Part shown: piece after piece, positions 20,151 to 43,182 of the stretch
How the letters are laid out: each line of letters opens with the position of its first letter
How positions within the stretch are numbered: the first letter of the stretch is position 1
Source of the DNA: Malacoraja senta
Lineage: Eukaryota
Length of the DNA: 64,000 bases
Reading direction: 5' to 3'
Assembly: GCA_038087875.1 (NCBI GenBank)
Contig: CM075987.1
Location: 27,840,001-27,904,000 of the forward strand
Translations under genes and position numbers: made by a program
Notes under the pieces: generated by a model
The model's database searches: none
Told to the model about the DNA's origin: nothing
What the model saw: only the letters and a program-made list of their open reading frames with translations

Positions 20151-20477
20151 AGAGTAAGTGATGTGAGCAATCAGGGAGCGGGGAAGGGAAAGGACAGGGA
20201 GGGAGAAAGGGAGAGAGAGAGAGAGAAGGGGGAAGAGGCAAGAGTGTTTTATTGCCATGCGTCCCAGATACAACTACGAAATCCTTACTTGCAGCAGCAC
20301 AACAGGATATATAAACGTAGTACACTGTAAACAATATAATAAACGAGAAAAAAAGTCCAGTGTATGTTCACATATATACACACACACATGTGATGTTTAA
20401 GAAAGAACTGCAGATGCTGGAAAAATCGAAGGTAGATAGAAATGCTGGAGGAACTCAGCGGGTGAGGCAGCAACGAA

Positions 20478-23052: not shown

Positions 23053-23390
23053 ATCAATATTAACAAGTGTCACCATAATAAACAGTTAACCACAGCCCGA
23101 CCCTGGGGCCTCTGCAGCCTCAGTTGAGTTTATTGAGGTACAGTGACTGTACACCTATAGTGACTGAGTGAGTGAAAAGCTTTTGTTGCACGCTATCCAT
23201 TCTTCAGGACAGTCTGAAGAAAGGTCTCGACATGAAAGGTCTCGACATGAAACGTCACCCATTCCTTTTCTCCACAGATGCTGCCTGACCAGCTGAGTTA
23301 TTCCAGCCCTTTGTGTCTGTCTACAGTTGAGCCATTTCCAGTGTACAGATACATGGTCAGAGAATAACGTTTAGTGCAAGGATAGTCCGA

Positions 23391-23945
23391 TCAAGGATAG
23401 TCCGAGGGTCTCCAAAGAGACAGACAGTAGTTCAGGACTGCTCTCTGGCTGTGGTGGGACGGTTCAGTTGTCTGATGATGAAATGTTCCCGAGTGGTTCC
23501 AGTTCCAGGGCCCGGCCTCCTCGTCTCTGGCCCCGGGCCCCGGCCTCCACCAGGCGGGCCCAGGCCCAGGCCCAGGCTGCTCCCACACGCCGGTCTCGCC
23601 GCTGTAGTTGTCGGCCGGGGCCGGGGCCGGGGCTGGGGCCGGGGCAGCCTCTCCCTCCTCCCCGTCCTCCTCGTCCGGCTGCTCGGCGCAGACCTGCAGC
23701 GCGACCAGGGCGCCGAGGGCGAGCAGCCAGAGCCGGGGCCTGTCTCGCTTCCGCGGCGGCAAGTAGCGCCGGCCCGAGGCCGGGTACAGCACCCGCCGGG
23801 GCCGCCTCCTCCTCCTCCTCCTCCTCCTCACCTGGCGGTGGCAATCAAGCCGCTCCTGCTCCCGGTCCCGGTCCCCCGGCTCGGCAGCACCGCTACTCGA
23901 CGTCCAGGGCAGAGGCCCACAGCGGCCCACAGGGCTGAGGCACAT
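23391..23945 (-). CDS. IER3/IEX-1-like immediate-early membrane protein, 184 aa, intronless
   Basis: Kozak gcccgccATG at 23945 (MCLS..., cf. IER3 MCHS); poly-Arg, RRVLYP..RRYLP and a hydrophobic helix ending LQV, matching the IER3 core; lies in a CpG island; downstream ARE and AATAAA. Confidence 0.8.
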   Translation of the reverse strand: MCLSPVGRCGPLPWTSSSGAAEPGDRDREQERLDCHRQVRRRRRRRRRPRRVLYPASGRRYLPPRKRDRPRLWLLALGALVALQVCAEQPDEEDGEEGEAAPAPAPAPAPADNYSGETGVWEQPGPGPGPAWWRPGPGARDEEAGPWNWNHSGTFHHQTTEPSHHSQRAVLNYCLSLWRPSDYP

Positions 23946-24223
23946 GGCGGGCAGTGGAGACGACAACGACAACGACGACCCGGCCTCTGTCCTCACTGTC
24001 CTCGGCCTCTGGGCCTCGCTCCCCAGTTCTTGACGCTGGACCCCGGGCTCGGGCTCTCGTTGTGTCCGGGCTCTCGATCGATGCTGTTTCTCGGACTCTG
24101 TCCACGTTCTCCCCCTTGCTGTGTATCTTCACGCTGGGGCTTTGGCTCTCTACGCTGGGCCCCGGGCTCTGTGTCTCTGCTGCTCCTGTGGTTCTGTGCT
24201 CCTCTAGCTGCCCGATCCCCGGG

Positions 24224-24290
24224 TTATATCCACGCCGAGCTCCGGGGCCGGGACTTGAATTTCCCTCCCTCATTCACCCAGTGACCGCCC
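24224..24290 (-). promoter_or_regulatory. Putative core promoter of the IER3-like gene: TATA-like box, NF-kB-like site, GC box
   Basis: Minus strand ATATAA at 24229-24224, GGGAAATTCA at 24265-24256 (one mismatch to the kB consensus), GGGCGG near 24285. Confidence 0.5.
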
Positions 24291-24649
24291 ACTTGCCCGG
24301 CCACAAGATTTATTAAACCTTTAACGTCGCCAAACATTCCTGAGCAGTGTGTGGGCGAGTAATGAATCGAAACCTGAAAAACTGCAGAAAGGTTATGTTT
24401 AAATGCTGCTTCTCTGCTGTAAACAGACTGCTGAACGGCCCTCTCACAAACTAAGGGCCCCCCCACAAACTAAGGGCCCCCCCCATCTCCCGACCTACCT
24501 CGTGGGGTTTTTGCATATGTTAAATCTGCAATTTCTGGAACGGTAACGGTATAATTCTGTAACACGTTGGTATTGTTCACTTTGCACGGCATGTTTGATT
24601 GTACAGTATGATTTAACTGGGAAGTATGCAAACAAAGTACTCCTAGCCA

Positions 24650-25115
24650 TGTTCTTAAAACCCGTGCAGACCAACTGGACGGAGTTTTTGCGGAAATCTT
24701 CAATCCCTCATTACTATAGTCCAAGGTTCCCAACTGCTTTAAAACGACGTCAATAATTCTGACGCCGAACAAGAGTAAGTTGACATGCCTCGATGACTAT
24801 CGCCTGTGGCACTAACATTTGTGGTGATCAAGTGCTTTGAAAGGTTGTGTATGACGCATATCTGTAAAACATATCTGCCTTAGAAGGACCTGGACCCACT
24901 GCATTTGACCTATAGACACAATACCTCAACAAGGGATGCAATATCACTGGCTCTCCACATTGTACTGGACAATTGGACAATAACAATACATATGCCAGGC
25001 TGTGGTTCATTGACTACAACTCAGGTTCAACGCTCTCATCTCCTCCAACCTTCGCAGCAAACTCAGAGAACTGGGTCTCTATGGAATCAGATCCTTGACT
25101 TCCTATTCGGCAGAC
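24650..25115 (+). mobile_element. Degenerate Rex1-like RT fragment
   Basis: Decayed ADQL.GVF..IFN.SL, DYR..ALT and DPL.F.YR.N motifs. Confidence 0.65.
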
Positions 25116-25289
25116 CACAGAAGGGTACAGAGAAGATTTACGAGGATGTTGCCAGATGGGAGAGGGGAACCCCTGTTCCCTAAAGAATGCGGACATCTCG
25201 GATGTCCTAGTATGGAACACTCATCTTGGGCGCATATGCGGCGTAGACGGAGGAGTTGGGACTGACTAATAGTGACTGAAATTTATTCG

Positions 25290-26475
25290 TCGTTGCTATC
25301 CCTCGAGGTCGAGGATGATGGTCTACGTTCTGTTGTCTTTATGGACTCTCAGATGGCTTATGAGTCCAATCCTGGCTTTGAAAGTTCTTCGGCATTCAGG
25401 ACAGGTAATTCCAGATGGCAGATCGGGCTTTGGTTGTTGCTGCCTCTCTTTCAGTTTTCTTCTCTTTTCTTCTAATTCTGCGCATCCCTTGGCTTCGAAG
25501 GTCGCTGTTCCTTCTTGGATGATGGTTCGCCAGAGTTTCCTGTCCTTGGCATTGGTTTCCCAATTGTCGATGTCAATTGCACATTTCTTCATGCTGGCTT
25601 TTAAGGAGTCTTTGAATCTCTTCTTTTGTCCGCCTCTTTTCCGTTTGCCTTCTTTAAGCTGGGAGTAGAAGGTTTGCTTTGGTAGACGCTCGTCTTCCAT
25701 CCGAACAACATGACTGACCCATCTTAGTTGGTTCTTGATGATGAAGGCTTCGATGCTAGATGTTTTCGCTTCATTCAGCACGCTGACGTTGGTTCTTCTG
25801 TCTTCCCAACTGATATTTAAGCTGCTTCGAAGACATCGTTGATGGAACTTTTCAAGTGTTTTCAGATGGCATCGGTATGGTGTCCAGGTTTCTGATGCAT
25901 ACAGGAGCATTAGAATCACTACTGCCTTGTACACTAACATTTTGGTGTCTGTTCGGATGTCACGATTTTGAAAGACTCTCGATCGAAGACGCCCAAATGC
26001 TGTTCCGGCACAGTTAAGACGAAGTTGGATCTCGTCATCAAGGTCAATATTGGAGGAGAAGTGACTTCCAAGGTACGGAAAGTGATCCACATTTTCCAGG
26101 GTTGTTTCACCAAGTTGAATTGACGGTTCTTTCCGATTTGTCTCAGTTGGTGACGATTGGTAGATAACCTGAGTCTTCTTGGAGTTGATGGTAAGTCCAA
26201 GTTTCGTGTATGCACTGTTGAAGCCAGTCAGGATCTGTTGCAGATGATTTTCTGAGAGAGCTGCGTATTGGAACTCGATGAGGGAGCTCATAGATGTCTT
26301 AGTTTTGGACTTGAGACGGGCAAGATTGAAAAGTCTGCCATCTGTTCTGTAGACGCTTTTGATTCCTGGGGGTAGGTCATCCTGGATGATGTGGATGGTT
26401 GTCGCAATGAAGATGGTGAACAGTTTTGGGGCAATCACGCATCCCTGTTTCACTCCTGATCTGACTTGAAACAGT
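25290..26475 (-). mobile_element. RTE-clade LINE, 5'-truncated
   Basis: ORF 25323..26453 with VKQGCVIAP, F.YLGS, LLYASETW, QLRW..HVVRM and a C-terminal CPEC...SHLR.H zinc finger; the YADD motif lost by in-frame deletion. Confidence 0.9.
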
Positions 26476-28119
26476 TATTACAAACACACTGACTCCCACA
26501 ACTATCTTGACTACACTTCTTCCCACACTGCTTCCTGCAAAGATTCTATCCCCTACTCCCAATTCCTCCTACTCCCAATTCCATACTAGGACATCCAAGA
26601 TGTCCTCAATTAGGGAACGGGGGTTCCCCTCTCCCTTCATAGATGAGGCCCTCACTCGCGTCTCGATGGTAGCTTAATTCTGTATATAACTTTGTAGCTT
26701 TGTATATAACTATCTTTGTAGCTACAACATTGGGAATGTGTAATGGGACAGCTCTGAGGCAGCTTCATTGCTCATCCAAGTCGTGCTATATTTGTCCTAC
26801 AAACATTTTATGGGCTAGGCAGAACATATCTTTACAATAGATCTAACACGTACTGTAACTGACCTACAAGCTATTGATAGGGCAAAGCAGAAAATGTTTT
26901 ACTCTCTACCTGATCTTTGCCCGAGGCATGATTATTGGGAAAGAATGGAGACTATTGTTGTCTGTCTATAAACTGTACAGTATCTTATCTGAAATTGTTT
27001 ACTGGATCAGCAAAGAGGGAGGTTATTACATTTTCGACTTCTTGAACCTCTCTTAGTTTAGAGTTTAGAGATACAGTGTGGAAATAGACCCTTCGGCCCA
27101 TTGATTCTGCACAGACCAACAATCACCTGTACACTAGTTCTATCCTACACACAATTTACAGAAGCCAATTAACCTACAAGCCTGCACGTCTTTGGAAAGT
27201 GGGAGGAAGCCAGAGCGCCTGGAAAAACCCACACAGTTTCAACTTTGATGGTGTAATCTCCTGATTACTGCCAGTACCAAGTGCCAGTGTGCGTGGAAAC
27301 AAGGGTGGCCTTCATCACTGTCCAATTGGAAAGAAGTTGCACGAGGAGGGCTTTAAATTCTTGGACGTTAAATACTCTGGGACCATTCCTGGACAGGTGG
27401 GATGTGTACATGTGTAGAAAGGAACTGTACATGCTGGTTTAAACCAAAGATAGACACAAAAAACTGGAGTAACTCAGCTGGACAGACAGCATCTCTGAAG
27501 AAAAGGAATAGGTAACATTTCGGGTCGAGTCTGAAGAAGTGTCTCAACCCTAAACGTCACCTATTCCCTTTTCTCCAGATGCTGCCTGACCCGCTGAGTT
27601 ACTCCATCTTCTTGTGTCTATCTTTGGGATGTGTACATGCTGGACAGATTGTACCTCAACCCAGCAAGGATCACTATGCTTAGTGGTACTGTGGGGGGAG
27701 GTGTAGACCAAACTGGGTTCAAGAAGGTAACATTAAGAAGGAAGAAATGAACAGCACCAGAATATTAAGTAGAAATGTTTGGACTGGATGAGAAGGGCGG
27801 GCACAAGAAGCTCAAGGATGCATGAGGGCAACATTGTAAATGATTACAAGAATTGGGGGACATGTATGGATAGCTCATGGAATAGTGTAGATGGGGCATG
27901 TTAGTCAGCATGGACAGGTTGGGTTGAAGGGCCTCTTTCCACGCTATATGACTCTATTGCAGGTGGAGAGAATGATTAAGAAAGCACACAGGAATCTGAA
28001 CTTGAATCTTTATTAAACAGTATCCAATTCGGGCACCACCATTTGGAAAGATGTGAAGGCTTCGGAGAGGATCTTTGAAAAGATTTACCAAAATGATTCA
28101 TAAGGTCATAAGTGATAGG

Positions 28120-30610
28120 AGTAGAATTAGGCCATTCTGCCCATCAGGTCTTCTCCTGCCTTCTCCCCATAACCTCTGTCACCCGTACTAATCAAGAATT
28201 TATCTATCTCTGCCTTAAAAATATCCACTGACCTTGCCTCCACAGCCTTCCATGGCAAAGAATTCCACAGATTCACCACCCTATGATTAAATAAATTCCT
28301 CATCATCTCCTTCCTAAAAGAATGTCCTTTAATTCTGAGGCTATGTCTTCTAGTCCTAGTCTCTCCCACTAGTGGAAACATCCTCTCCACATCCACTCTA
28401 TCCAAGCCTTTCACTATTCTGTACGTTTCAATGAGGTTTTCCCTTCATCCTTCTAAACTCCGGCGAGTTTAGAAGGATGAGGGGGCATTATATAGAAACA
28501 TATACAATTATAAAAGGACTGGACAAGCTAGATGCAGGAAAAATGTTCCCAATGTTGGGCGAGTCCAGAACCAGGGGCCACAGTCTTAGAATAAAGGGGA
28601 GGTCATTTAAGACTGAGGTGAGAAAAAACCTTTTCACCCAGAAAGTTGTGAATTTATGGAATTCCCTGCCACAGAGGGCAGTGGAAGCCAAATCACTGGA
28701 TGGATTTAAGAGAGAGTTAGAGCTCTAGGGGCTAGTGGAGTAAAGGGACATGGGGAGAAGGCAGGCATGGGTTATTGATAGGGGATGATCAGCCATGATC
28801 ACAATGAATGGCGGTGCTGGCTCGAAGGGCCGAATGGCCTCCTCCTGCACCTATTTTCTATGTTTCTATGAGTACAGGCCCAGTGCCGACAAACGCTCAT
28901 CATATGTTATCCTACTCATTCCTGGGATCATTCTTGTAAACCTCCTCTGGACCCTCTCCAGAGCTAGCACATCCTTTCTCAGATATGGTGCCCAAAATTG
29001 CTCACAATATTCCAAATGTGGCCTGACCAGCGCCTTGTGGAGCCTCAGCATTACATCCTTGTTTTTGTATATAAGCCCTCTCGAAATGCTAGCATTGCGT
29101 TTGCTTTCTTACTATCGATTCGACTTGCAGATTAACGTTTTGGGAATCCTGCACCAGCACTCCCAAGTCCTTTTGCACCTCTGATTTCTGGATTCTCTCC
29201 CCATTTAGAAAATAGTCTATGCCTTTATTCCTACTACCAAAATACATGACTCCACACTTTGCTACACTATATTCCATCTGCCACTTCTCTTCCCACTCTC
29301 CCAACCCGTCCAAGTCCTGCAGAGTCCCTGCTTTCTCTACACGACCTGCCCTTCTACCTATTTTGGTATCATCCGCAAACTTGGCCACAAAGCCTTCAAT
29401 CCCCTTGTCCAAATCATTAATATACAACATGAAGAGTAGCGGCCCCAGCACTGACCCCTGCTGAACTCCACTAGTCACTGGCAGCCAACCAGAAAAAGCC
29501 CCCTTTATTGCCAATCTTTGCCTTCTACCATCCAGCCAACCTGCTGTCCATGCTAGTATCTGTCCTTCGATACCATGGGCTCTCATCTTCCCGAGCAGCC
29601 TCCCATGTGGCACCTTATCATCGGCTTTCTGAAAATCTAGGTATACTACATCTACTGACTCTCCTTTGTCTATCCTATTTACTTCTTCAAAGAATTCCAG
29701 CAAATTTGTCAGGCAAGACCTCCCCTTCACAGATCCATGCTGACTTTGGCCTATTTTATTGTGAACTCTTAAGTACTCCGTAACCTCATCCTTTCAAATG
29801 GACTCTAAAATCTTACGAACCACTGAAGTCAGACTAACAGGCCTATAGTTCCCACTATTCTGCTTTGCTCCCTTCTTGTGCAGCGGGGTAATTTTGGCAA
29901 TTTTCCAATCATCTGGAACCATTCCTGACTCTAGTGATTCCTGTAATATCATTATCAATGCCTCCACAATCTCTAAAGCCACCTCTTTCAGAACCCTAGG
30001 GTGCAGTCCATCTTGTCCAGGTGACGTATCCACCTTCAGCCCTTTCAGCTTCCCAAGCACCTTCTCCCTGGTAATAGCCACTCCCCTAACTTCCACCCCC
30101 TGACTCTCTTGAATTTCAGGCACGTTGCTGGTGTCTTCCACTGTGAAGGCTGATGCAAAAAAGTTATTCAACTCCTCTGTCATTTCTTTATTCCCCATTA
30201 TCACTTCTCCTGCATCATTCTCCAGCGGTCCAACGTCCACTCTTGCCTCTTTCTTGCTCTTTATATAACTGAAGAGACTCTTGCTATATTTTATATTAGC
30301 TAGCTTACCTTCGTATTTCATCTTTTCTCCCCATATTGCCTGTTTAGTCACCTGTTCTTCTTTAAAAGCTTCCCAATCCTCCGGCTTCCCACTAATCTTT
30401 GCAATGTTATATGCCTTCTCTTTTAGTTTTATACTGTCCTTGACTTCCCTTGTCAGCCACAGTCACCTCTTTCTCCCCCTAGAATCTTTCTTCCTCTTTG
30501 GAATGAGAAGGTCCTGCATCTTCCGGATTTTTCCCAGAAATTCCTACCATCGTCCCTGCTGGTTTCCCTTTCCAGTCAACTTTGGCCAGCTCCTCCCTCA
30601 AGCCTCTGTA
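28120..30610 (-). mobile_element. CR1 LINE ORF2 (RT), degenerate, about 2 kb, interrupted by an antisense CR1 3' fragment
   Basis: Successive ORFs with NYRPVSLTSVV, SCLTNLLEF, SGV.QGSVLGP, KFADDTK, LVRPHLEYC and RTRGHS. Confidence 0.92.
28465..28869 (+). mobile_element. CR1 3' fragment inserted antisense into the CR1 above
   Basis: RTRGHSLRIKG..FT.KVVNLWNSLP peptide, CR1 3' UTR and TTTCTATG tail; GAGT at both junctions (28465-68, 28870-73). Confidence 0.85.
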
Positions 30611-30939
30611 GTCCCCTTTGCTCAGCTGCTCAGGGTTGAGATTCCTGTTGAGTTAGTTATGTGGACAGACTGGATAAACTGCCACAAGAAGGCAAGAGGT
30701 TGTGAAGTGACAAAGGAGTTTAAAACCATGAAAATTATAGAAAATGTTGACCGAAACAGAGTGTTCTCTAATTCTTGATTGCTCCACCATGCTCTCTGCA
30801 CTGGTTGTAGCTGGTATTCGCGAACTTGATTGTAGAAACAAAGAACTACAGATACTGGTTTATACCAAAGATAGGCACAAACTGCTGGAGTAACTCTGGG
30901 TCAGGCAGCATCTCTGGAGAAAAAGGATAGGTGATAGAT

Positions 30940-31427
30940 AATAGACAATAGACAATAGGTGCAGGAGTAGGCCATTCGTCCCTTCGAGCCAGGACCGCCA
31001 TTCAATGTGATCATGGCTGATCATCCACAATCAGTACCCCTTTCCTGCCTTCTCCCCATATCCCCTGACTCTGCTATCTTTAAGAGCCCTATCTAGCTCT
31101 CTCTTGAAAGTATCCAGAGAACCGGCCTCCACCGCCCTCTGAGGCAGAGAATTCCACAGACTCACAACTCTCTGTGAGACAAAGTGTTTCCTCGTCTCCG
31201 TTCTAAATGGCTTACCCCTTATTCTTAAACTGTGGCCCCTGGTTCTGGACTTCCCCAACATCGGGAACATGTTTCCTGCCTCTAGCGTGTCCAAACCCTT
31301 AACAATCTTATATGTTTCAATAAGATGCCCTCTCATCCTTCTAAACTCCAGAGTGTACAAGCCCAGCCGCTTCATTCTCTCAGCATATGACAGTCCCGCA
31401 ATCCCGGGAATTAACCTTGTAAACCTA
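30940..31427 (-). mobile_element. CR1 3' fragment
   Basis: RRFTRLIPG...RTRGHSLRI peptide; (TATTGTC)n tail. Confidence 0.85.
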
Positions 31428-31964
31428 CGTTTTTGGTCGGGACCCTTCTTCAGACGAAAGGTCTGAGCCACTCCAGCCCTTTGATCTCTCTTTAAATGTT
31501 TGCGTTTGTTAATAATTCTGACTTTGATGAAACGATTGTAATATATCCCTGTACCCACTGAATGGATAACTTTTTGTCATCTTAATGAGCAATTCTAAAT
31601 ATCTATTAGTCTGCAACTTTAAGTTTTAGTTAAGTTAATTTGTTTGTCACGTATACCGAGGTACAGTGAAAAGCTTATGTTGCGTGCTATCCAGTCAGTG
31701 AAAGGACAATACTTGATTACAATCTTCACATTGTACAGATACATGATACAGGGAATAACATGAATAATGTTTTGTGCAACATAAAGCCAGTAAAGTCCGA
31801 TCAAAGATAGTCTTTGGTTACTCCAATGAGGTAGATAGCAGTTCAGGACTGCTCTCTGGTTATGGTAGGATGTTTCAGTTGCCTGATAACAACTGGGAAG
31901 AAACTGTCCCTGAATTTGGAGGTGTGTGTTTTCACACTTCTATACCTTTTGCCCAATGGGAGAG

Positions 31965-32496
31965 GCACAGTAGAGAGCATGCTGACCGGTTGCATCATGG
32001 CTTGGTTCGGCAACTTGAGTGCCCTGGAGAGGAAAAGACTACAAAAAGTAGTAAACACTGCCCAGTCCATCATCGGCTCTGACCTCCCTTCCATCGAGGG
32101 GATCTATCACAGTCGCTGCCTCAAAAAGGCAGGCAGTATTATCAAGGACCCACACCATCCTGGCCACACACTCATCTCCCTACTACCTTCAGGTAGAAGG
32201 TACAGGAGCCTGAAGACTGCAACGACCAGGTTCAGGAATAGCTACTTCCCCACAGCCATCAGGCTATTAAACCTGGCTCGGACAAAACACTGAACTTTAT
32301 TAGCCAATTAACTGTTATTTGCACTTTATCAGTATATTGATTCATGTGTGTATATATTTATAGAATGGTATATGGACACACTGATCTGTTTTGTAGTCAA
32401 TGCCTACTATGTTCTGTTGTGCTGAAGCAAAGCAAGAATTTCATTGTCCTATCAGGGACACATGACAATAAACTCACTTGAACTTGAACTTGAACT
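31965..32496 (+). mobile_element. Rex1-like LINE 3' fragment
   Basis: VESMLTGCIMAWFG...RFRNSYFPTAIRLLN; (AACTTG)n tail. Confidence 0.85.
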
Positions 32497-32705
32497 TCAG
32501 AAGAGAGTGGACTGGGTGTGACTGGTCCTTGATGATGCTGCTGGCCTTGCCGAGGCAGCGTGAGGTGTAGATGGAGTCAATAAATGAAACTTAGAATTTG
32601 ATACCCAAGCTGTAAGAGTTAAATTACCAGGATAGATTGCAAAAACAAACATTGTAATCCTTGGCATTTAATTGGTGCGGATATATTTAATTATACAGTA
32701 GTTGT

Positions 32706-33923
32706 TAAAACATTATGAACCACTAATAGAGGGATTGAGAATAATCAGTGCTGGGATTTGAGGGGCAGGGGCTGTGGTACTTCAGTGCCTGACATGCAGA
32801 GCACGGATAAATGAGATCGCTCCTTTGCAAGAGCTAACCGATACTCAGACAATTGTTAACAATAAGTGAAGACTTTTGATATCCAGCAGCAATAACCATT
32901 GTGAGGGAAAGGTGTGTAGATGGAATTAGATTACAGTTGACTGCAAGCTCTTTGAAGGTTGGAATGGGCTTGTGGGGTGAGTTGGCTCAGATCCTGTGGG
33001 TGTGGGTGTAGTCGTTGGGAAAGTTCTATTTATAGATGTTGGAGATATGAGCGGCGTGTGGCTGGGAAGTGGCGACAGTTAAACTGTAATCATAGTCAGC
33101 AATGTTGGAATGGGGAGAAAGTGACGGGCCCTGCGCTAGGGCTCCGCCTAAGCCTACTAGATCTCCCGGTTGCTAAACACTTGAACTCCCCTTCCCATTC
33201 CCACACTAACCTTCCTGTCCTGGGCCTCATCCATTGTCACAGTGAGGCCACACGCACATTGGAGGAACAGACCTCATATTTCGCGTGGGTAGCTTACAGC
33301 CCGATGGTATGCACATTGAATTCTCCAATGCTTAATACTCCCCCTCTCCCTTCTTCCCCATCTTCTCAGCCCTTTCCCTCTACCGCCCATCTCCCCTGTG
33401 CCCCTCCTGAACTCACATCTATCTCTCCTGGAACTTACATTCCTTCCTCTAGCTTCACAATTCACAACTCTTCAATCCTTTTGTCTTACACCTTCTGTCC
33501 TTTCATCTTAGTTTAGTTTAGATACAGGGCGGAAACTGGCCCTTCGGCCCACTGAATCCGTACGTACCAGTGATCCCCACACACAAACACTATCCTACAC
33601 ACACTAGGGGTAAATTACATTTGTACCAAAGCCAATTAACCTACAAACCTGCACGTATTTTGAGTGTGGGGGGAAACCGAAGATCTCGGAGAAGACCCAC
33701 GCAGGTCACAGGGAGAACATACAATCTCTGTACAGACAGCACCCGTAGTCGGGATTGAACCCGGAACTCTGGCGCTGCGAGCGCAGTAAGGCAACTCAAT
33801 CGCTGCGCCACCGTGCTGCAAAAGAGCGATCTCATTTATCCGTGCTCTGCATGTCAGACCCTGACCCTCGAATCCTAGCAGTGAATATTCTCAATCCCTC
33901 TATTAGTGGTTCATAATGTTTTA
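32706..33923. repeat. Inverted duplication (arms 32706-32829 and 33817-33923)
   Basis: TAAAACATTATGAACCACTAATAGAGGGATTGAGAATA...GACATGCAGAGCACGGATAAATGAGATCGCTC is present in both orientations. Confidence 0.9.
33510..33817 (-). mobile_element. tRNA-derived SINE copy
   Basis: Reverse complement of the same consensus, with head GCACGGTGGCGCAGCG. Confidence 0.8.
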
Positions 33924-36900
33924 GGAATTATAATTTGACCCAGGTTTGATCCTGAATATGGGTGCCCTCTGTGTAGAGCTTGGACATTTTCCCCGGGACC
34001 ACATGGGTTTTCTCTGGGTGCTCCGGTTTCCTCCCACATTCCAAAGACGTGCAGGTTTGTAGGTTAACAGAAATTGCTGGAGTAACTCAGCTGGTCAGGC
34101 AGCATCGCTGGAGTAAAGAAATAGGTGATGTTTTGGGACGAGATCCTATTCCTATTCTCCAGAGATGCTGCGTGTCCCGCTGAGTTACTCAAGCTTTTTA
34201 TGTCTATCTTTGGTGTAAAGCAGCACCTGCAGTTCCTCCTTACACAGGTTTGTAGGTTAGTTGGCTTCTGTAAATTGTCCCTAGTGTGCTGGTGAGAACT
34301 AGTGTATAGGTGATCACCGGTCAGCACAGAGGGCAATGTGCCTGTTTCCACGCTGTATCTCTGAATTAAACTAAAACTATAAAAACCTAAACAGTAAACC
34401 CTTGCTTGGCTGATGTCCCAAGGGCAGAGGGTGTTGTGAGTGAGACTTCACTGGATAGCGAGGCTGGTGCCCTTCATTGCAATGTCTGCTTGTGGCACAG
34501 TGACACAGCTGGTATAGCTGCTGCCTCTCAACCCGACACACAGCTTCCATCCTGACCTCAGCTGCTGCCTGTGTAGAGTTTGCGCGTTTCCCGTTTCACA
34601 CGTGTGTTCGACCGGGTGATCCAGTTTCCGCCCACATCCCAAAGACATGTAGGTTTATTGGTCTCTGTAAATTGCCCCCTAGTGTGTAGGGAGTTGATGT
34701 GGAAGTGGGATAACATAGAACTCGTGTGAATGGGTGATCGATGGTCAGTGTGGACTTGGTGGACTGAAGGGCCAGTATCTCTAAACTAAACTGAACATTA
34801 ATTTCTGTTGGAAGAACTTATTGTTCTCAACTATTTAGCAAATTAGATAAAATGTGTACATATACAGCATGAATGTTTTTTGCAACATTATGTGAATGTA
34901 GGTAAATGCTGGCCTTGGATAGGTCAAATGGATGTAGGTCAGGTTTGGCCTAGGATTGACAGATACAGAATGGATGATGGTCAGCTTTGGCCGATGTTGA
35001 CGGATGAAGTCGGCTTCATGTGGCCCACTGGGGCTAGCCTGGAGAGGGCAGTACAGCTCTGGTCTCAACATTGCCATTCACCACCTCCCTTTGCTCCCCT
35101 GCAGATGGACACAATAAACTGGAGTAACCCAGCGGGACTGGACAGGCAGCATCTCTGGAAAGAAGGAATAGGTGACGTTTTGGGTCGAGACCCTTCTTCA
35201 GTTTCGGAAGTTCAGCTGCAGTTCAACTGGCCAGAACAGGGGTAGGGGGCTTCTGAACTCTGAGTATCAGAGGAAGTCTAAATAGCAATTGAGGCTGCTT
35301 GTGCAAGGCATGCCGAATCACCCTTCATAGAAACAGCCGTCTGTCAACATTCAAAATGTAAAACAAGCTGTACAGAAGTAACATTTGTTAAAGAACTCCA
35401 TGTTATATAATGTGTGGGTGAATGATGGGTTGTACGTAAAGTTGGTTGCGTGAATAATAGGCAGGCCACATAATGGACGGGGTATATGGGGAGAAGGCAG
35501 GAACAGGGTACTGATTGTGGATGATCAGCCATGATCACATTGAATGGCGGTGTTGGCTTGAAGGGCCGAATGGCCTACTCCTGCACCTATTGTCTATAAA
35601 TAGAATCATTAATGGCTAGAGTGTAGATTGGGTAAGATGTAAAGAAGGTCTGGGGTATCATGGCCAGGGTGGCACAATGGGAGAGTGTGTAAACAATGGG
35701 TGGTAAGTATGTACAATCAGCCAGGGTTTATAATGAGTGTATGTGTCTGAAGTATGTGTCTGAAGAAGGATCCAGGCATGCTGTCAGTCCCATTGAGTTA
35801 CTCCAGCACTTTGTCCTTTTGTGTATTAATTAGCATCTGCAGTTCCTCATTTCTGCATAATAGGCAGATAAATAATGGGTAGGGTATGTGGATGGCAGGT
35901 GTAACATGGTTAGAGTATATCATGGGATATATAATGGAAGGTATGTGTAATGAGTGGTGATAGATGAGCTGGGAAATGGGTAGGGTGTATAATATATATT
36001 ATGTATAATGCACGGTGAATATAAGTTATGTTAAGATCGGAGGTTGAGCCTCAGTATATAGACGGTGCTTATATCTGCGTGCACAGCAAGGCATCGATGC
36101 CTTGTTCACTGAGGTACAGCCGATGTGGACCTTAGCCACATGCACAAGGTTCAGTTTCAGTTCAGTTTAGTTTATTGTCACGTGTACCGAGGTAGAGGGA
36201 AAAGATTTTGATGCGCGCTAACTAGTCAGCGGAAAGTCCCGACATGATTACAATCGAGCCGTCCACTGTGTACAGATACACGATAAAGGGAACAACGTGA
36301 ATAGGGTAAAGGCCTTGCAATACCACAGCATCCTCCAAAAATGAAGATTCACAGCGACGTTAGAGAAATAGACCACTTCTCATATCCCAAGAGGCATGTT
36401 TGGTGAAGGAGTATGTCCATGAACGGACTGACCACTGCCTTGCTGTTGAGGAGGGTGTTATGAAACTTGAGGCCATGCATTGGAGCACAGAAGCCCTGCG
36501 TATGTGTGAAAGAAATGCACCACTTCACAAACCACCCACCCACCGCCCCATCAGTCACTCAGACTGTGGCTTCCACACTGCCTTTATTACCCATCTCAGA
36601 GGCAGAGTAGAATCAGATTGTCCTTAATCTTGGGTGTACTATGGGAGAGCAATGTTGGTTGGTATAGTGTACAATGTGTGGGTTGTAAACTAGGATGGGT
36701 GTAAACTGGGTGTGATGAATCATTAGCTGAATATGTAACGGTTGGTGAATACAACAGTGAGGTGACTGAGGGGGCAATATATAAACAACAAATATAAACC
36801 AGCTGGATTGTACTATGGGTGATATACAAATGTACTAGGTAGGTTGTGTATTCAAGGAGGGGTTGTATAAATTACTTTATAACTGGCAAGGCAAACTGAG

Positions 36901-37402
36901 CTTGGAACATTATCAGCAGGGTATATCTTGGGTGGATTTCTTACAACCTGTGTGTGTAACTTGTGGTGTGTAAAACTTGTGTGGTTTTAAAAGGATGCTA
37001 GGGTATATAATGAGCTTGAATTATGGATGTGATGTATAAAAGGTGCTGTGAAAATTGAACAGATCTATAACATGAATGCATTTTGGGAAGTCAAACTAGG
37101 GCAGGTACTTCACAGTGGACTGGCAGGGTCCTGGGGTAGATTGTAGAGCAGAGGGATCTTGGAGTACAGGTACATAATTCCATTAAAGTGGTGTCACAGG
37201 TAGACAGGGTGGTGAAGATATATCAGGTGCACCGTTCCGGTGGGAGTAGCATGTGGCTGATGATGCTGGAGCACAGATGGGCAGCAGGTTAAATAATGGA
37301 GATACATTGAACAAAAGAATAGGTCCCGTGGTTGCAAAATCGATGAAAGGAATTAACAGCCTAAGCTGCCACTTCATAGGTGAATACGTGCAGGAGAAAG
37401 GA

Positions 37403-37649
37403 CACAGAGTGCTGGAGTAACTCAGCGGGTCAGGCAGCATCTCTGGACAACATGGATAGGTGACGCTTCACAGAGTGCTGGAGTAACTCAGTGGGTCAGG
37501 CAGCATCTGTGGAGAACATGGATAGGTGGTGCTTCACAGAGTGCTGGAGTAACTCAGTGGGTCAGGCAGCATCTCTGGAGAACATGGATAGGTGGTGCTT
37601 CACAGAGTGCTGGAGTAACTCAGCGGGTCAGGCAGCATCTCTGGAGAAC
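37403..37649 (-). repeat. Tandem array, about 3.7 x 66 bp, of a pLTR-derived unit
   Basis: CACAGAGTGCTGGAGTAAC recurs at 37403, 37469, 37535 and 37601. Confidence 0.9.
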
Positions 37650-38450
37650 GGTAACAGATAACGGAAACAGTAGCATTTTACAGTATGAGGATGTTGCCAG
37701 GATTCAAGGGTCTGAACTGTAGGGAGAGGTTGAGCAAGTCAGTACTCTATTCCTTGAGTCGCAGGAGGACGTGGGGTGATCTAATGGAGGTGTATAAAAT
37801 CATGAGAGGAATAGATCGGGTAGACGCACAAAGTCTCTTGCCCAGAGTAAGGGATTCAAGAACTAGAGGACATAGGTTTAAGGTGAAGGGGGAAAGATTT
37901 AATAGGAATCGGAGGGGTACGTTTTTCAAACAAAAGGGTGGTGGGTCATTGGAACGAGGTAATTGAGGCAGGGACTATTGCAACGTTTAAGAAATAACTA
38001 GACAGGTACATGGATAGGACAAGTTTAGAGGGATATGAGCCAAAAGCAGGCAGGTGTGACTAGTATAGAGGGGTGTGTAAGAAGGAACTGCAGATGTGGT
38101 CTCGCTGATGTATAAAAATCCACATCTTGAACAACGGATACAGTAGATGAGGTTGGAGGAGGTGCAAGTGAACCTGAAAGGACTGTCGGGGTCTGGACTG
38201 TGGAGGGAGGAGGTATAACGACAGGTGTTGCATCTTCTGTGGTTGCAGGGGAAAGTACCTGGGATGGGGGGAGGGGGAAGGGATGAGTTAACCTGGGAGT
38301 TGCGGAAAGAACGGTCTCTGCGTGGGCAAGTTGGGCCAAAGGGCCTGTTTCCACGCTGTGTGATTCTGTGACTCGCAGAGAGCCAGAGGGGGTTTTGGTG
38401 AATCATAAACTGGTGCCATTGACCTGCTATCAGGGCCCATTCACTAGCTG

Positions 38451-38454
<4 letters not shown>

Positions 38455-38511
<57 letters not shown>
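38455..38511. repeat. (CT)n microsatellite
   Basis: Perfect CT dinucleotide run. Confidence 0.95.
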
Positions 38512-38514
<3 letters not shown>

Positions 38515-40007
38515 TGACTGGAACTGTGGGCAGCCCAGAGATTAGACGCACAAAATTAGAAATGTGATGAATAATGTCGAGAACAGGGGACGTGAGAACT
38601 CATTCTCTTAAAATGACACGACATTGGAAACTATTTGTCCCTCAATAACTAAGTCATCACTGTAGTTACATCCTTTTCCCCCACCCCCACAACATCCCAT
38701 TCTGATGAAGGGTCTCGACCCCAAACATCACCCAATACTTCTCTCTACAGATGCTGCCTGTTACTGAGTTACTCCAGAATTTTGTGTCTATCTTCAGTTT
38801 AAACCAGCATCTGCAGTTCCTTCCTACACGTCCCATTCTTAAACATTTCTGCTTTTCAGGTACACGACATTAGCTCTTTAGACCAGCGCGGCTTGTTTTA
38901 CGGAAAGGAAACTGCTGACACAGCGAGCTTTATCGCGCCACAATGCCCCCAGTGAACGTTAGCTGTTGTGAATTCTAGACTTTTTAGCAGGAAGTGTAGC
39001 TATATTTAATCAGACACTCATCCTACTACCATCGAGGGGATCTGTCGCAGTCGCTGCCTCAAAAAGGCTGCCAACAGCAATACTCAATGCTGATAATTGA
39101 CTTCCCAGCAGAGCTTGTGCCAGGAACCGTGAAGCACGGGCTCTGCTGAGCAGTGAATGGAGGAATATCTGCGGGATATATCCTGGTGTCCACTTGCACA
39201 TGTGGGAATGCGGCAAGCCGCTGTGGACCAGCAAGTGGGCTTGCTGACGCTCAGTGTTTGCTTCCTCTTCTGCATTAAACATCCTGCGGCTCTGAACTTC
39301 ACCCACAACTTGTCACAGTTCTTTCGACACCCACTTTCAAACATTCTTGCTGAGAAATTGAATCCCACCCATTACTGCGTTTAACCCCGTTGGAGTACCT
39401 GCAAAAGATGCCTACATTGGAGAAATGAACAAATCATGTGCACCTTTGCCCAGCAATAGAGAACTGTTGGCATCTCACGTGTTTCCCATCAGCCACAGTG
39501 TGTGGAGCAAGAGGGGGGGAGTTAGAGTGTGGAGTATCTGTACCTGAGCCCAGTCTGGCCCAGCTGGCACCAGCACCAACTTAGAGAGAGAGATAGATTA
39601 TTGATCAGTACAGGTGTCAGAGTTTATGGGGAGAAGGCAGGAGAATGGGGTTAGGAGGGAGAGATAGATCAGCCGTGCTTGAATGGCGCAGTAGACTTGA
39701 CGGGCCGAATGGCCTAATTCTACACCTATTCATTATGATCTTATGACCTTCCAAGAATTCTGCTCAACGTGACATGGCTGACACTGAAGACAGACACAAA
39801 AAGCTAGAGTAACTCAGCGGGACAGGCAGCATCTCTGGAGAGAAGGAATGGGTGATGTTTCGGGTCAAGACTACGAATGACTGCCTGTGCCCTGGCTGAC
39901 CGCTCACTCTGAGATGGGCAATAGAGAACTGTTGGCATCTCACGTGTTTCCCATCAGCCACAGTGTGTGGACGATGGGATGAGAGAGCAGCGAGAGGGGG
40001 GAGTTAG

Positions 40008-40775
40008 AATGTCCAGCAAAACCAAGGAACTGATTGTGGACTTTGGAAGGGGTAGGATGGGGACCCAGTCCTGTTTATATCAACGGGTCGATGGTGGAAA
40101 GGGTCAAGAACTTCAAATTCCTGGGCATGCATATTTCCGAAGCTCTCTCCTGGTCCCAGAACACTGATGCAATTATAAAGAAAGCACATCAGCGCCTCTA
40201 CTTCCTGAGAAGATTACGGAGAGTCGGTTTGTCAAAGACGACTCTCTCGAACATCTACAGGTGCATAGTAGAGAGCATGCTGACCGGTTGCATCGTGGCT
40301 TGGTTCGGCAACTTGTGCGTCCAGGAGCGGAAAAGGCTGCAAAAAGTTGTAAACAATGCCCAGTCCATCATCGGCTCTGACCTCCCTACCATCGAGGGGA
40401 TCTGTCGCAGTCGCTGCCTCAAAAAGGCTGCCAACATCATCAAGGTCCCACACCATCTTTGCCACACACTCATCTCTCCGCTGCCATCAGGTAGAAGGTA
40501 CAGGAGCCTGAAATCTGCAACATCCAGATTCAGGAATAGCTACTTCCCCACAGCCATCAGACTATTAAACACAACTTCAAACAAACTATGAACTATAACA
40601 GCCTATTGCACTTTATCTGTTTACTGATGTATGTATATATATATTCTATGGTATATGGACACACTGATCTGATCTGTATTTATGACTACAATATCCTGCT
40701 GTGCTGCAGCAATGCAAGAGTTTCATTGTCCAATCTGGGACACATGACAATAAACTCTCTTGACTTGACTTGACA
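40008..40775 (+). mobile_element. Rex1-like LINE 3' fragment
   Basis: ORF 40034..40591 with FKFLG, QRLYFLRRL and SYFPTAIRLLN; (CTTGA)n tail. Confidence 0.88.
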
Positions 40776-41922
40776 TAAGGGAGTGACGTTGATAAGGTGG
40801 CAGTGCGGGGGGCAATGGGGTGTTTCAACCTCAGCATGTGTGGGCAAACCAGTGTTTCCAGAGGGTGGGGCGGGGTGAGGCGGTGGGGTGGGATGGGGGG
40901 GTTGGGGTGCGGGGGCGGGGCGGTGGCCTAAATCAAACAGAAACGGACCTTTACTGTTTCAGACGGAGGCAATGTGTTAGAGGGGGAGGGACAGGCAGTT
41001 AGTCCTGTCTGCCAGGAGTCTGGGCATTGAGGGAGCAGCATGTTATGGGTGAATGTATCCGCTCTGGGTGCTGCCAGCTTGCTGTGCTAGAGGTGATTAG
41101 CTGTAGGGCAGGTTCGGGTCTCAGCTAGCTCATGAGCACACGCAGAACTTTTGCAGAATTTGCATTCTGTGCAAATGAGCCTCTGAGTCTGTCTCTTATT
41201 GGCCTTTGAAAGCAGGCGGGTGTAAACAATGAAGTCACACCACGCACACTGGCCCCATTCACCCAGTGAAGCTGCAGAGATGAGAAGCATGATAATATTT
41301 CACAACAGCTCAGTGGTGCTGTACATGCTGTGGAAAATGCCTGTCGACTTTTCAGTTTAGAGTCAAGCAGGGTTAGGCACTACCATCTCATTTAACTGCA
41401 GATAGAATAATGTGTGATCAACTCCCCGTGTACAGCAGAGACTCAGTGCGGACACTGTAAATGAATGGCCACTGTTGTACAGTACCGCATGAACACAGAC
41501 TGGACACTATTGTACAGTGCACCACCGACTCAGTGTGGACACTGTAACACAAACTGGCCACTGTTGTACAGTTCACTAATAGTTGTACAATACAGCACAG
41601 ACTCAGGGTAAACACTTGCCTGAGGAACAATATTCACAGCACTCACTTTGCTTTTGAAATGGTTACTTCATTTTAGCAACAACAGATATTTTCCTTGACA
41701 GAAAGTGAACAGTAGACAGAGGCATCATGAATTGTCTTTTTGCACAAAGTTACTCAATGTGTGTAGCGTGGTCTGGTTAGAGTTAGTGAGCGAGTGAGTG
41801 TCCAACACACCTGCCCTGTACCATTCCATTAGTAAACCCAGAGCCAGGGGCAAGCAGAGAGAGCATGATGAATGTCCCAAAGCCTCTCCTGACATTGTGT
41901 TGCTGAGAATCAGCCTTAGTCA

Positions 41923-43182
41923 TCAATGCAAGAGGTTCATTTTGGAGTCTACGTGCTTGCAGCCGTGGACAGAGTACTGGTGCTCGCCAACAGAGTGGTA
42001 ATTCAGCTCGCCGGACAGCTTGTCCAGATGGGCCGAGTCTGGGTAGAATCCTTCTGCCATCATCTTTTCTAAGAAGCACTCGAGGATGTGGTGTCTCTGG
42101 AGCAGGGTGAAGGGCACAATGTCTGCATGGTTCCACAGTGGGTGGATGTGTACCAGTGAAGACTGCACCATGAAGAGAAGCTCTTCAGACTTTGCTGGCT
42201 GCTGGGTCATGCCACTAGAAGCGTTGTGGAGAACAAACTTGGTTATCTCAGCCTGCCCGTGGTTGCTGATCAATATGTACACCACATTGAGGAACTCGTT
42301 GGTCTGGTTGGGTTGGAGGAAGTTGTGCAGGAAGTCCAGGAGGCCGGGCTGCATGAACTCCACCTCGTCGAAGATGAGCAGTGGAATCTTCTCCTCATCC
42401 TCGGCACGGCTGACTATCTCCGAGATGATCACCTGCAGCTCCTGCTGACAGCTGGTCACGTTGTTGTGGGTCGGGCAGTGATGCAGCACAAAGTACTGGT
42501 GCACCAGCTCGTCACCCAGCACTGAACGGAAGTGTTTGGCCAGCAGTCTGCCCACCAGGCTCTTGCCCACCCCGATGGGCCCATTGACAGAGAGCACCAG
42601 CGGTTTGTTGTGACTGTGAGTGGACAGGTAGTCATTCAGCAGATCCATCACACTATCAATGGCAACCGCCTGCCCAAACACCTCCCTCTTAAGTGTCTTC
42701 TCCAGCCCAGCCAAGTCATATTTTAGCACGTTGTCATCCAGGTTCTCGATGGCGTTGTATATCTGAAAGAACACAATAACACTCAGCAAGAAGAGGCAGT
42801 GTTTGGCCTTGCTTTTCTTCTTCTCGGGAAGGTACTTCCGGCTGTCGTTTGGGTAGAGCACTTTGCGCTTCTTGTGTGAGCGCCGCTTCCTGGTGGCCCT
42901 GACGGGGACCTTGTCGAAGGTGAAATACTCTGGCGGCTTGCCCCTGTTCCTGGCCCCGCGACCCTGGCACTCCTGCCCCTTGAGCCCCGGCCTCTCCCCG
43001 TCACCAGGCTCCCGCTGCTCTGTGCTGACCCTCCGCCTCTTCATCAACAGGTACTTGTGGCGGATGCGGCAGGCGGCTCTCAGGGGAGACGAAAAGGTGG
43101 ACATCTTGTGTCTGGGCACAGGCACCCCATTGGGCATGGACTCCATCGCTCGTCTGGTTGGCTCAGGCCCCTTGGGTTCCAT
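41923..43182 (-). CDS. TOR4A: Torsin-4A (AAA+ ATPase), 419 aa
   Basis: ATG at 43182 after acceptor gttcttgttacag; TM helix, NAIENLDD, VFGQ, Walker A GPIGVGKS, Walker B LIFDEVE, sensor-1 ILISN and C-terminal GCK torsin motif. Confidence 0.95.
   Translation of the reverse strand: MEPKGPEPTRRAMESMPNGVPVPRHKMSTFSSPLRAACRIRHKYLLMKRRRVSTEQREPGDGERPGLKGQECQGRGARNRGKPPEYFTFDKVPVRATRKRRSHKKRKVLYPNDSRKYLPEKKKSKAKHCLFLLSVIVFFQIYNAIENLDDNVLKYDLAGLEKTLKREVFGQAVAIDSVMDLLNDYLSTHSHNKPLVLSVNGPIGVGKSLVGRLLAKHFRSVLGDELVHQYFVLHHCPTHNNVTSCQQELQVIISEIVSRAEDEEKIPLLIFDEVEFMQPGLLDFLHNFLQPNQTNEFLNVVYILISNHGQAEITKFVLHNASSGMTQQPAKSEELLFMVQSSLVHIHPLWNHADIVPFTLLQRHHILECFLEKMMAEGFYPDSAHLDKLSGELNYHSVGEHQYSVHGCKHVDSKMNLLH

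Follow-up and report, generated by a model that had tools for sequence, protein, structure and literature searches.

Sequence evidence that torsin-4A carries an IER3-type tail-and-anchor module, from a skate locus holding TOR4A and a probable IER3-family paralogue

Introduction

In overall architecture, torsin-4A (TOR4A) can be compared with LAP1 and LULL1, type-II membrane activators of torsins that lack ATP binding and are not torsins themselves. They have a nucleoplasmic or cytosolic N-terminal tail, one membrane anchor and a lumenal AAA+-like domain, an arrangement that TOR4A would share, but no sequence relation between them and TOR4A was seen and they were not among the 134 matches of the TOR4A profile described below. 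Torsins have a lumenal location, and torsin4A is alone among them in having a predicted transmembrane domain, as stated in passages of one paper (PMC5350507). Here we analyse a stretch of 64,000 nucleotides from the skate Malacoraja senta (assembly GCA_038087875.1, contig CM075987.1, positions 27,840,001 to 27,904,000 of the forward strand; hereafter the window), which holds a TOR4A gene and, on the same strand, an open reading frame (ORF) resembling IER3, also named IEX-1. We present evidence that the N-terminal region of TOR4A and the IER3 family very probably share one homologous module, and that the ORF next to TOR4A belongs to a second, paralogous branch of that family.

To our knowledge, IER3 has been regarded as having neither paralogues nor recognisable domains. 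It is not known to be related to IER2 and IER5, with which it has only the "immediate early response" name in common. Human IEX-1 is glycosylated, its F-T-F motif is an ERK docking site and its basic tract is a nuclear localisation signal. The resemblance between the two skate genes was first pointed out in a sequence-only reading of the window, made without database searches, and the analysis reported here followed it up.

Results

TOR4A and an IER3-like ORF lie on the same strand of the window

The features on which the comparison is based are the following.

41923..43182, minus strand: TOR4A, full coding sequence of 419 residues in one unbroken ORF (Pfam; identity to skate torsin-4A)
42727..42957, minus strand: IER3-type module within TOR4A, residues 76-152 (aligned by hhalign to the IER3 alignment)
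42760..42861, minus strand: the 34 TOR4A residues of the match first noticed, V108-I141 (ORF translation, BLASTP)
41935..42735, minus strand: lumenal torsin AAA+ domain of TOR4A, residues 150-416, with the Walker A motif G-P-I-G-V-G-K-S (Pfam and sequence)
23391..23945, minus strand: probable IER3-family paralogue (clade I, see below), ORF of 184 residues with an M-C start like that of the family (profile scores, tree, tblastn)
23691..23792, minus strand: the 34 IER3-like residues of the match first noticed, V52-V85 (ORF translation, BLASTP)

The longer ORF contains KKRKVLYPNDSRKYLPEKKKSKAKHCLFLLSVIVFFQIYNAIENLDD, in which V108 begins at 42861 and residue 141 ends at 42760. Two Pfam families matched it: Torsin (PF06309) on residues 150-259 (E 3e-16, 60.1 bits, cut-off 27) and TOR1A_C (PF21376) on residues 364-416 (E 7.6e-8, 32.8 bits, cut-off 27). 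Its residues 60-165 were 92-93 % identical to skate torsin-4A (92 % for Amblyraja radiata), and a search for relatives with the same residues returned 40 matches, the named ones among them being torsin-4A or TOR4A. Judged by its domain content and identity, the ORF is torsin-4A, and its entire coding sequence is intronless in the window. Three parts can be told apart in the protein: a TOR4A-specific N-terminal basic helix (S-P-L-R-A-x-x-R-I-R-x-K-Y), which was absent from all IER3-like proteins compared, the IER3-type module, and the torsin domain. In order, the module has F-T-F-D and the basic tract, then VLYP, R-K-Y-L-P and S-K-A-K, and after these the membrane anchor, from which Y-N-A-I-E-N-L-D-D leads up to the torsin domain. 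The predicted transmembrane helix, C-L-F-L-L-S-V-I-V-F-F-Q-I, occupies residues 129-141 and is preceded by the basic tract; this region was kept in 38/38 full-length relatives. A look-up in the ESM Atlas with residues 60-150 gave no usable match.

The shorter ORF contains RRPRRVLYPASGRRYLPPRKRDRPRLWLLALGALVALQVCAEQP, in which V52 begins at 23792 and the 34th residue ends at 23691. It reads R9-P-R-R-VLYP-A-S-G-R-R-Y-L-P-P...L-W-L-L-A-L-G-A-L-V-A-L-Q-V, that is, it keeps the module from the basic tract to the anchor, with VLYP, R-(K/R)-Y-L-P and the conserved Gln of the anchor at fixed spacing. The F-T-F-(D/E) motif, expected about 20-30 residues ahead of VLYP, is missing. No Pfam family matched the 184-residue ORF. 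The gapless match of 34 residues between the two ORFs, which the sequence-only reading had reported, was found as described: 13/34 residues were identical on manual count, and BLASTP of the two ORFs extended it to 44 positions (14/44 identical, 23/44 positive, 0 gaps, 35.8 bits, E 3e-7 for this one comparison, composition-based adjustment being applied). The two genes share the minus strand, with the IER3-like ORF downstream and 17,977 bases between the TOR4A stop (41923) and the IER3-like ATG (23945). When all six frames of the window were scanned with the module profile, two copies were found, scoring 111.9 and 39.1 bits. The next match, at 17124-17216 on the plus strand (13.3 bits, E 0.0056 in the six-frame set of the window), was regarded as chance.

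Profile searches connect the TOR4A module with IER3/IEX-1

A profile of 69 positions was built from TOR4A only, using the aligned module segments (alignment A1, from before F-T-F-D/E to after the anchor) of 24 of the 38 full-length TOR4A relatives, which ranged from sharks to lizards, frogs and teleosts. It was searched against 1,835,955,588 representative proteins and gave 134 matches at E <= 1e-3, 47 of them at E <= 1e-10. Sorted by motif and tree, these comprised 17 TOR4A proteins or fragments, 1 broken TOR4A-derived form (P0144), 115 short proteins and 1 unrelated protein (P0055, a tandem-repeat protein of 1157 residues which passes by summing ten weak repeats). The 115 short proteins are about 84-300 residues long, apart from a few longer mispredictions, carry the module at residues ~20-110 and show no torsin mark.

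Source names were examined for 30 of the matches, looked up by exact sequence. This gave 26 clusters with a source-named member, and all of these (26/26) were from vertebrates. In 20 clusters at least one source used the name "radiation-inducible immediate-early gene IEX-1" or "IEX-1-like"; examples came from a shrew (P0072), a gecko, a woodpecker, a caecilian, lungfish, coelacanth, sturgeon, bowfin, sharks and a sawfish. The others were named as hypothetical or uncharacterised proteins or as zgc:158343, apart from one apparent misnomer. Shrew IEX-1 matched the A1 profile with E 6.1e-12 and has its motifs in the same order and at the same spacing as the TOR4A and IER3-like modules, while the best short match (P0051) reached E 2.1e-16.

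The reverse searches were run with an alignment of IER3 proper (A2) and one of full-length TOR4A (A3), with the database size Z set to that of the library. Profiles made from IER3 proper only and from clade I only each matched 44/44 full-length TOR4A proteins at E <= 1e-3, with scores of 57-86 bits and 50-81 bits respectively, on TOR4A residues ~50-153. The TOR4A of the window was matched by the A2 profile over residues 65-153 with 83.8 bits. Comparison of the two alignments themselves by hhalign (A2 vs A3) gave a probability of 99.4 % and E 7.4e-22 over 80 columns with 38 % identity. Thus the check that the sequence-only reading had proposed, an IER3 profile against TOR4A proteins at the level of both the hidden Markov model and the profile-profile comparison, linked the two families in each case.

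The shared block is longer than first described, about 75-80 residues and not 34. It runs from about 30 residues upstream of the stretch first noticed to the first residues of the torsin domain. Within it lie F-T-F-D/E, the basic tract, VLYP and R-x-Y-L-P, then the anchor with about ten residues on its lumenal side. Its upstream part had been missed because the skate IER3-like ORF has lost that part. No Pfam family covers the module, either in TOR4A or in 8 IER3-family proteins (E <= 1; one 12-bit chance match), and the Pfam family IER of IER2 and IER5 does not match these 8 proteins.

The similarity exceeds what composition can account for

Both the basic tract and the hydrophobic anchor are segments of biased composition. 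The effect of masking them, a check that the sequence-only reading had named as critical, was scored among the 116 non-TOR4A rows as the number reaching E <= 1e-3 at library scale. Without masking, 115/116 rows were significant (median 49.1 bits). With the anchor masked the number was 38/116 (median 27.9 bits), and with the basic tract masked 75/116 (median 39.2 bits). In a second control, 14 proteins including the window ORF were each shuffled 300 times, with residues permuted only within the N-part, the basic tract, the middle or the anchor, so that the composition of each segment was preserved. The highest shuffled score was 19.7 bits, compared with real scores of 42.5-77.6 bits, and 0/300 shuffles reached the real score in any of the 14 proteins. 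For the IER3-like ORF of the window, which scores 42.5 bits against the TOR4A-only profile, the shuffle maximum was 18.5 bits. Conserved columns also lie outside the two biased segments: F-T-F-(D/E), VLYP, R-(K/R)-Y-L-P, an A-K ahead of the helix, and Y-x-A-x-E-(N/D/E) after it, to which the invariant Gln within the helix may be added. The similarity of the two families is, as far as these comparisons can tell, one of homology and not of composition. The core of the sequence-only reading, namely a single homologous module in IER3 and towards the N-terminus of TOR4A, is thus upheld by the forward, reverse and profile-profile searches and by the segment shuffles.

The neighbour of TOR4A groups with a second clade of the family

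Two unrooted trees were computed, a quick one with 172 rows and a careful one with 76 rows. Both split the family into two clades, with a Shimodaira-Hasegawa-like approximate likelihood ratio support of 98 in the quick tree and branch supports of 100/97 in the careful tree. Clade II consists of IER3 proper (mammals, birds, reptiles, caecilian, lungfish, coelacanth, sturgeon and bowfin), two shark/ray "IEX-1-like" groups, and the TOR4A module, which forms one clade of its own (99/94). Clade I consists of teleost proteins of the zgc:158343 type, teleost proteins that UniRef calls IEX-1, coelacanth LOC106704514, lungfish LOC122789477, shark hypothetical proteins, two amphibian subgroups (Pleurodeles NDU88_011763 and NDU88_011767), and uncharacterised proteins of turtle and chicken (A0A8V1AM64).

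The skate ORF fell within clade I, on the far side of the 100/97 branch from IER3 proper in the careful tree. It scored 96.9 bits against a clade I profile built without it (E 1.7e-22, Z = 1.84e9), compared with 52.3 bits against the IER3-proper profile, which is 44.6 lower. Its nearest proteins by tblastn and phmmer were those of the sharks Heptranchias (P0058), Rhincodon (P0099) and Chiloscyllium (P0069). With the first of these, tblastn gave 50.6 % identity over 87 residues (E 1.3e-20), extending into the post-anchor tail with its N-x-S site. R-R-Y-L-P-P, R-D-x-P-R, V-A-L-Q and C-E-Q-P are common to the skate ORF and clade I; by contrast, F-T-F-D and a C-terminal C-A-Y-L-E are retained in the shark relatives but missing from the skate ORF. 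With IER3 proper in clade II the window ORF shares the M-C start and, over residues ~39-90, the same order and spacing of motifs that TOR4A has at ~76-152; it differs from it in lacking F-T-F-D/E, while TOR4A differs in adding the N-terminal helix and a torsin domain of 270 residues. In the careful tree the skate ORF stands beside a tetrapod subgroup of clade I that is likewise without F-T-F, so that this motif does not define the whole of clade I. Holding it with the sharks instead cost 1.44 log-likelihood units (lnL) and was not rejected by the approximately unbiased (AU) test (p 0.44).

Sharks and rays carry separate "IEX-1-like" genes that group with tetrapod IER3. The neighbour had initially been treated as IER3, and the locus as one that keeps both genes. 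Neither description survives these scores and supports: the neighbour is best placed as a clade I paralogue, other genes of sharks and rays occupy the IER3-proper clade, and therefore the locus does not keep both IER3 and TOR4A, but TOR4A and a paralogue of IER3. Taken as a joint claim, homology of the module between TOR4A and the IER3 family together with placement of the neighbour in clade I appears very probable from the sequences.

Several database predictions in these searches have an unusual structure. P0058 of Heptranchias perlo bears the source name "peptidyl-prolyl cis-trans isomerase G-like", apparently from a repetitive R/E/Q/T-rich N-terminal extension of 240 residues; its IER3-like part begins at an internal M-C (residue ~238), and the annotated start is therefore probably wrong. 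The two clade I subgroups of Pleurodeles carry locus tags four apart on one contig. P0108, a teleost prediction of 522 residues, has a clade I IER3-like module (31-97) followed by a DDR-type discoidin ectodomain (186-489; 318.6 bits to human DDR1, PDB 4AG4), which suggests that in that teleost a ddr gene follows directly downstream of the clade I gene. On its own, the discoidin domain does not tell DDR1 from DDR2, its scores with the two being about equal; human IER3 adjoins DDR1. On the TOR4A side, nine short teleost predictions (P0045, P0046, P0050, P0052, P0053, P0056, P0064, P0094, P0103) depart from the TOR4A sequence directly after the anchor (Q-V), into unrelated residues. Some teleost tor4a genes may thus have an intron a few codons ahead of the junction between module and torsin domain, where the skate gene has none. 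P0044, a TOR4A-type protein of 341 residues, sits on a very long branch of the tree (1.24); it could come from a deep-branching vertebrate and bear on the age of the fusion discussed below.

Sequence context of the skate IER3-like ORF

Three features of the DNA overlap the IER3-like ORF.

23805..23829, no strand: (CCT)8.3 trinucleotide repeat, AGG on the minus strand, encoding the run of nine arginines before P-R-R-VLYP (Tandem Repeats Finder)
23138..23488, no strand: high-copy interspersed repeat holding the last ~20-30 codons and the stop of the ORF (contig depth)
23401..24800, no strand: CpG-island-like stretch over the ORF and its 5' flank, with GC up to 0.74 and a CpG observed/expected ratio of 0.71-0.79, the median of the window being 0.39 (base composition)

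Repeat depth was taken from one public sequencing run (X1), which with its even depth of 17-44 and spikes at repeats looks like genomic DNA. Very high-copy interspersed repeats, as two copies or parts, lie at 22202-22786 and 23138-23488 of the window, with a depth of up to 7.5 million. The second contains a tandem duplication of 15 bases (23219-23256), and a further 15-base unit (23377-23405) duplicates the S-D-Y-P codons around the ORF stop. With a filter for CpG islands of observed/expected >= 0.75 and GC >= 0.55, three separate stretches of the 64 kb passed. The ORF with its 5' flank is among them, which suggests a promoter that is unmethylated in the germ line.

Discussion

Homology, convergence and the state of the skate gene

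A sceptical account of these results would explain the resemblance by convergence or composition: a basic tract ahead of a hydrophobic helix occurs in any type-II membrane protein, and a gapless match might be chance added to composition. The pairwise BLASTP match within the window, at just 35.8 bits, would be compatible with such an account. Two further points weigh against homology. When the anchor and the basic tract were both masked, 3/116 rows remained significant (median 17.6 bits), and much of the score therefore sits in these two segments, though as ordered sequence. In addition, the reverse and profile-profile tests are not fully independent of the forward search, because the IER3-family rows were recruited by the TOR4A profile; the names alone are independent. 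Against convergence stands the outcome of the forward search, in which 133 of the 134 matches drawn from 1.84 billion proteins were TOR4A or IER3-like and other type-II proteins were not returned. Moreover, shuffles that preserved the composition of every segment never approached the real scores, ordered motifs outside the two biased segments align at fixed spacing, and the hhalign comparison has E 7.4e-22. Convergence thus appears hardly credible, and homology of the module is retained as the reading that fits the evidence. It is a separate matter whether the skate neighbour is still a working gene. It may be decaying, and in the stronger form of that view the ORF is a relic, its module match a fossil and its open frame a by-product of GC-rich, repeat-rich DNA. 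Several observations count in this direction and against a live gene. The ORF has the longest end branch in the tree (1.58, compared with a median of 0.24), and it reads E-Q-E-R-L-D-C-H-R-Q-V where the sharks have Q-I-F-T-F-D-T-E-S, F-T-F-D/E thus being missing. Its arginine run is microsatellite-coded, and its Pro-Ala and Gly-Pro runs also derive from short tandem repeats. Its stop and last codons lie inside a high-copy repeat with a depth of 4.8e5 to 7.5e6, compared with 17-44 in the flanks, and tblastn did not find the C-terminal C-A-Y-L-E motif of the shark relatives downstream of it. Other frames of the GC-rich stretch are open as well, with ORFs of 269 and 151 residues on the opposite strand. 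Finally, two word-index protein searches gave no protein close to the skate ORF: with the whole ORF, 0/8000 scored candidates reached E <= 0.01, low-complexity words having probably swamped the search, and with residues 49-100 none of 11 candidates reached E <= 10. On the other hand, the frame is open from the conserved M-C start across the whole module, the identity to the six-gill shark protein continues through the post-anchor tail with its N-x-S, the clade I profile recognises the ORF with 96.9 bits, and the ORF occupies one of the three CpG-island-like stretches of the window. We therefore regard a relic as possible and as lying somewhat on the improbable side.

The direction in which the two families are related is a further question. 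The TOR4A module being one clade, torsin domain and IER3-type module were joined once, and on balance we slightly favour an origin in which an IER3-family gene gained a torsin ATPase domain after its anchor, so that the signal peptide of other torsins was replaced. The family is placed first in this scheme because its free-standing members are more diverse, because TOR4A has an extra N-terminal element, and because no intron interrupts the TOR4A coding sequence here. Introns are present in other torsin genes, and the intronless coding sequence would be compatible with a retrocopy. The opposite direction, that of the sequence-only reading, would have the IER3 family arise from TOR4A or a proto-TOR4A by partial duplication without the ATPase, as "headless" copies, and make the skate pair a surviving tandem remnant. 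The arrangement at the locus speaks for it, the clade I gene lying 18 kb from TOR4A on the same strand, as does a synteny hint from Heptranchias perlo, in which the contigs given for clade I P0058 and for TOR4A P0009 have the same length, 37,577,816 bases. (In Heterodontus francisci, clade II P0120 is on a contig of 74,466,956 and TOR4A P0007 on one of 62,842,262.) The tree also leaves room for it. Since the tree is unrooted, a root on the TOR4A branch is allowed, and a clade of TOR4A with the lineage of the neighbour, at a cost of 11.85 lnL, was not rejected by the AU test (p 0.26). It fits less well that the best tree groups the TOR4A module with clade II and not with the neighbour (100/97), and that the clade II profile gives TOR4A slightly higher scores than the clade I profile does (medians 76.5 vs 70.5 bits). 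The free-standing family looks older, with at least two clades and several subgroups in jawed vertebrates as opposed to the one tight TOR4A clade, and the N-terminal helix of TOR4A recurs in none of the IER3-like proteins. An origin of IER3 as a headless torsin copy hence seems rather unlikely to us. The scheme with the IER3 family first faces difficulties of its own. The direction of the fusion is not given by the tree, which is unrooted and in which three groups allow a single shape, no outgroup having been found. The AU test just cited does not bear out the 100/97 split that unites TOR4A with clade II, and holding clade II alone on one side cost 0.62 lnL (p 0.50). Introns pose a further difficulty. 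P0176, a shrew IEX-1 variant of 91 residues, starts just after VLYP, and P0110, an IER3-proper variant of 184 residues, has an insertion of ~50 residues at the same point; IER3 proper thus seems to have an intron within the module, after VLYP-x-x, and the human IEX-1L isoform retains its intron at this point. No intron is present at VLYP-x-x in TOR4A or in the window ORF, and therefore a simple transfer of one exon from IER3 proper does not fit. For the ancestral tandem IER3-TOR4A pair, said to have been sorted differently after the genome duplications, these results mean that it is not supported as written, nor is it contradicted, given an unrooted tree and AU p values of 0.44, 0.50 and 0.26.

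Proposed topology and function

From their sequences, the members of the vertebrate IER3/IEX-1 family are short type-II membrane proteins built on a module of ~75 residues. It runs from F-T-F-(D/E) through a basic tract, VLYP, R-(K/R)-Y-L-P and a small linker of charged residues; then come a single transmembrane helix, in which a Gln is invariant, and a short acidic stretch on the lumenal side. Following the positive-inside rule and the lumenal location of torsins, the basic residues before the helix would leave the N-terminal tail on the cytosolic or nucleoplasmic side, with the C-terminal part facing the lumen of the endoplasmic reticulum (ER) or the perinuclear space. With this topology the TOR4A module would be at once a signal-anchor and a cytosolic docking tail. 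IER3 would consist of this tail and anchor followed by no more than a short, glycosylated stub in the lumen, an arrangement that fits the glycosylation of IEX-1. Passages of another study map the contact between MCL1 and IEX-1 to the transmembrane domain of MCL1 (PMC7641127), and this suits an IEX-1 that is itself embedded in the membrane.

If the roles of the motifs in human IEX-1 hold, the TOR4A tail should bind the same signalling partners as IEX-1. A full-text literature search found no paper naming IEX-1 together with "FTF". A more far-reaching proposal, which we put forward as speculation and think improbable in its entirety, is that TOR4A might be a signalling-coupled torsin. Its IER3-type tail would dock ERK via F-T-F, recruit the IER3 partners B56-PP2A and MCL1, and relay a MAP-kinase or stress signal across the ER or nuclear membrane to the lumenal AAA+ ATPase. 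IER3 and its clade I paralogues, which are seemingly absent in mammals, would then be inducible "headless" competitors for partners and membrane sites, and the whole family would go back to one pre-duplication gene pair in the proto-MHC (major histocompatibility complex) region.

The full-text literature search, which left most subscription journals outside its scope, found no paper relating TOR4A and IER3, and the sequence-only reading, too, was aware of no description of the link. Five papers in which TOR4A and IER3 both occur are expression or omics studies by title and abstract. Among the papers listed for torsin terms, none also named IEX-1, and one named IER3 (PMC9542162, one of these five). 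What appears to be new is the reading of the N-terminal extension of TOR4A as an IER3-type module, as the passages on TOR4A in the papers found describe a predicted transmembrane domain only. TOR4A would accordingly be a domain-fusion gene and a case of a family relation that had gone unnoticed. This is of interest for both partners. TOR4A is the least understood human torsin, and the homology gives its tail concrete partners and motifs that can be tested. For IER3, it would fix the likely topology, with the tail cytosolic or nucleoplasmic and the glycosylated stub lumenal. It would also place IER3 in a vertebrate family of several genes, whose second clade, present in sharks, fishes, amphibians, turtles and birds, is uncharacterised. 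In evolutionary terms, the homology would offer a clean case of a new gene made from a signalling tail and anchor joined to an old ATPase.

Genomic surroundings

The other features recognised in the window are the following.

11703..12248, plus strand: PRY/SPRY (B30.2) exon, compatible with BSPRY (Pfam PRY 5.8e-14, SPRY 7.7e-9)
18240..19040, minus strand: HDHD3 orthologue, a HAD hydrolase and the gene that follows the IER3-like ORF on its 3' side (Pfam Hydrolase/HAD_2; E 1.8e-71 to human HDHD3, PDB 3K1Z)
25326..30462, minus strand: reverse-transcriptase fragments of a long interspersed nuclear element (LINE), occupying part of the interval from TOR4A to the IER3-like ORF (Pfam RVT_1 on 25323-26474 and 29089-29793)
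40.0-40.6 kb: ALKBH8_N-type tail (Pfam), LINE-related by inspection
50758..51729, minus strand: Penelope-like ORF, an open frame of 324 residues with no Pfam match, its C-terminal part like a GIY-YIG endonuclease by eye
55249..57525, plus strand: reverse transcriptase (Pfam)
58845..59594, minus strand: Tc1-type transposase (Pfam)

The sequence-only reading had connected the locus with the MHC paralogon, an argument that rests on human map positions: IER3 near TUBB in the MHC (6p21), TOR4A near TUBB4B on 9q34, and BSPRY and HDHD3 on 9q32. In the window, HDHD3 is confirmed by its match to the human protein. For BSPRY a B30.2 exon was found and the identity is not established, the best PDB matches of this exon being the B30.2 domains of butyrophilin and TRIM proteins. 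Besides the stretch over the IER3-like ORF, CpG-island-like stretches lie at 19601-20200, on the 5' side of HDHD3, and at 60201-60600. The latter overlaps ORFs at 60028-60517 on both strands, which have no Pfam match, and may be the first exon or promoter of a gene.

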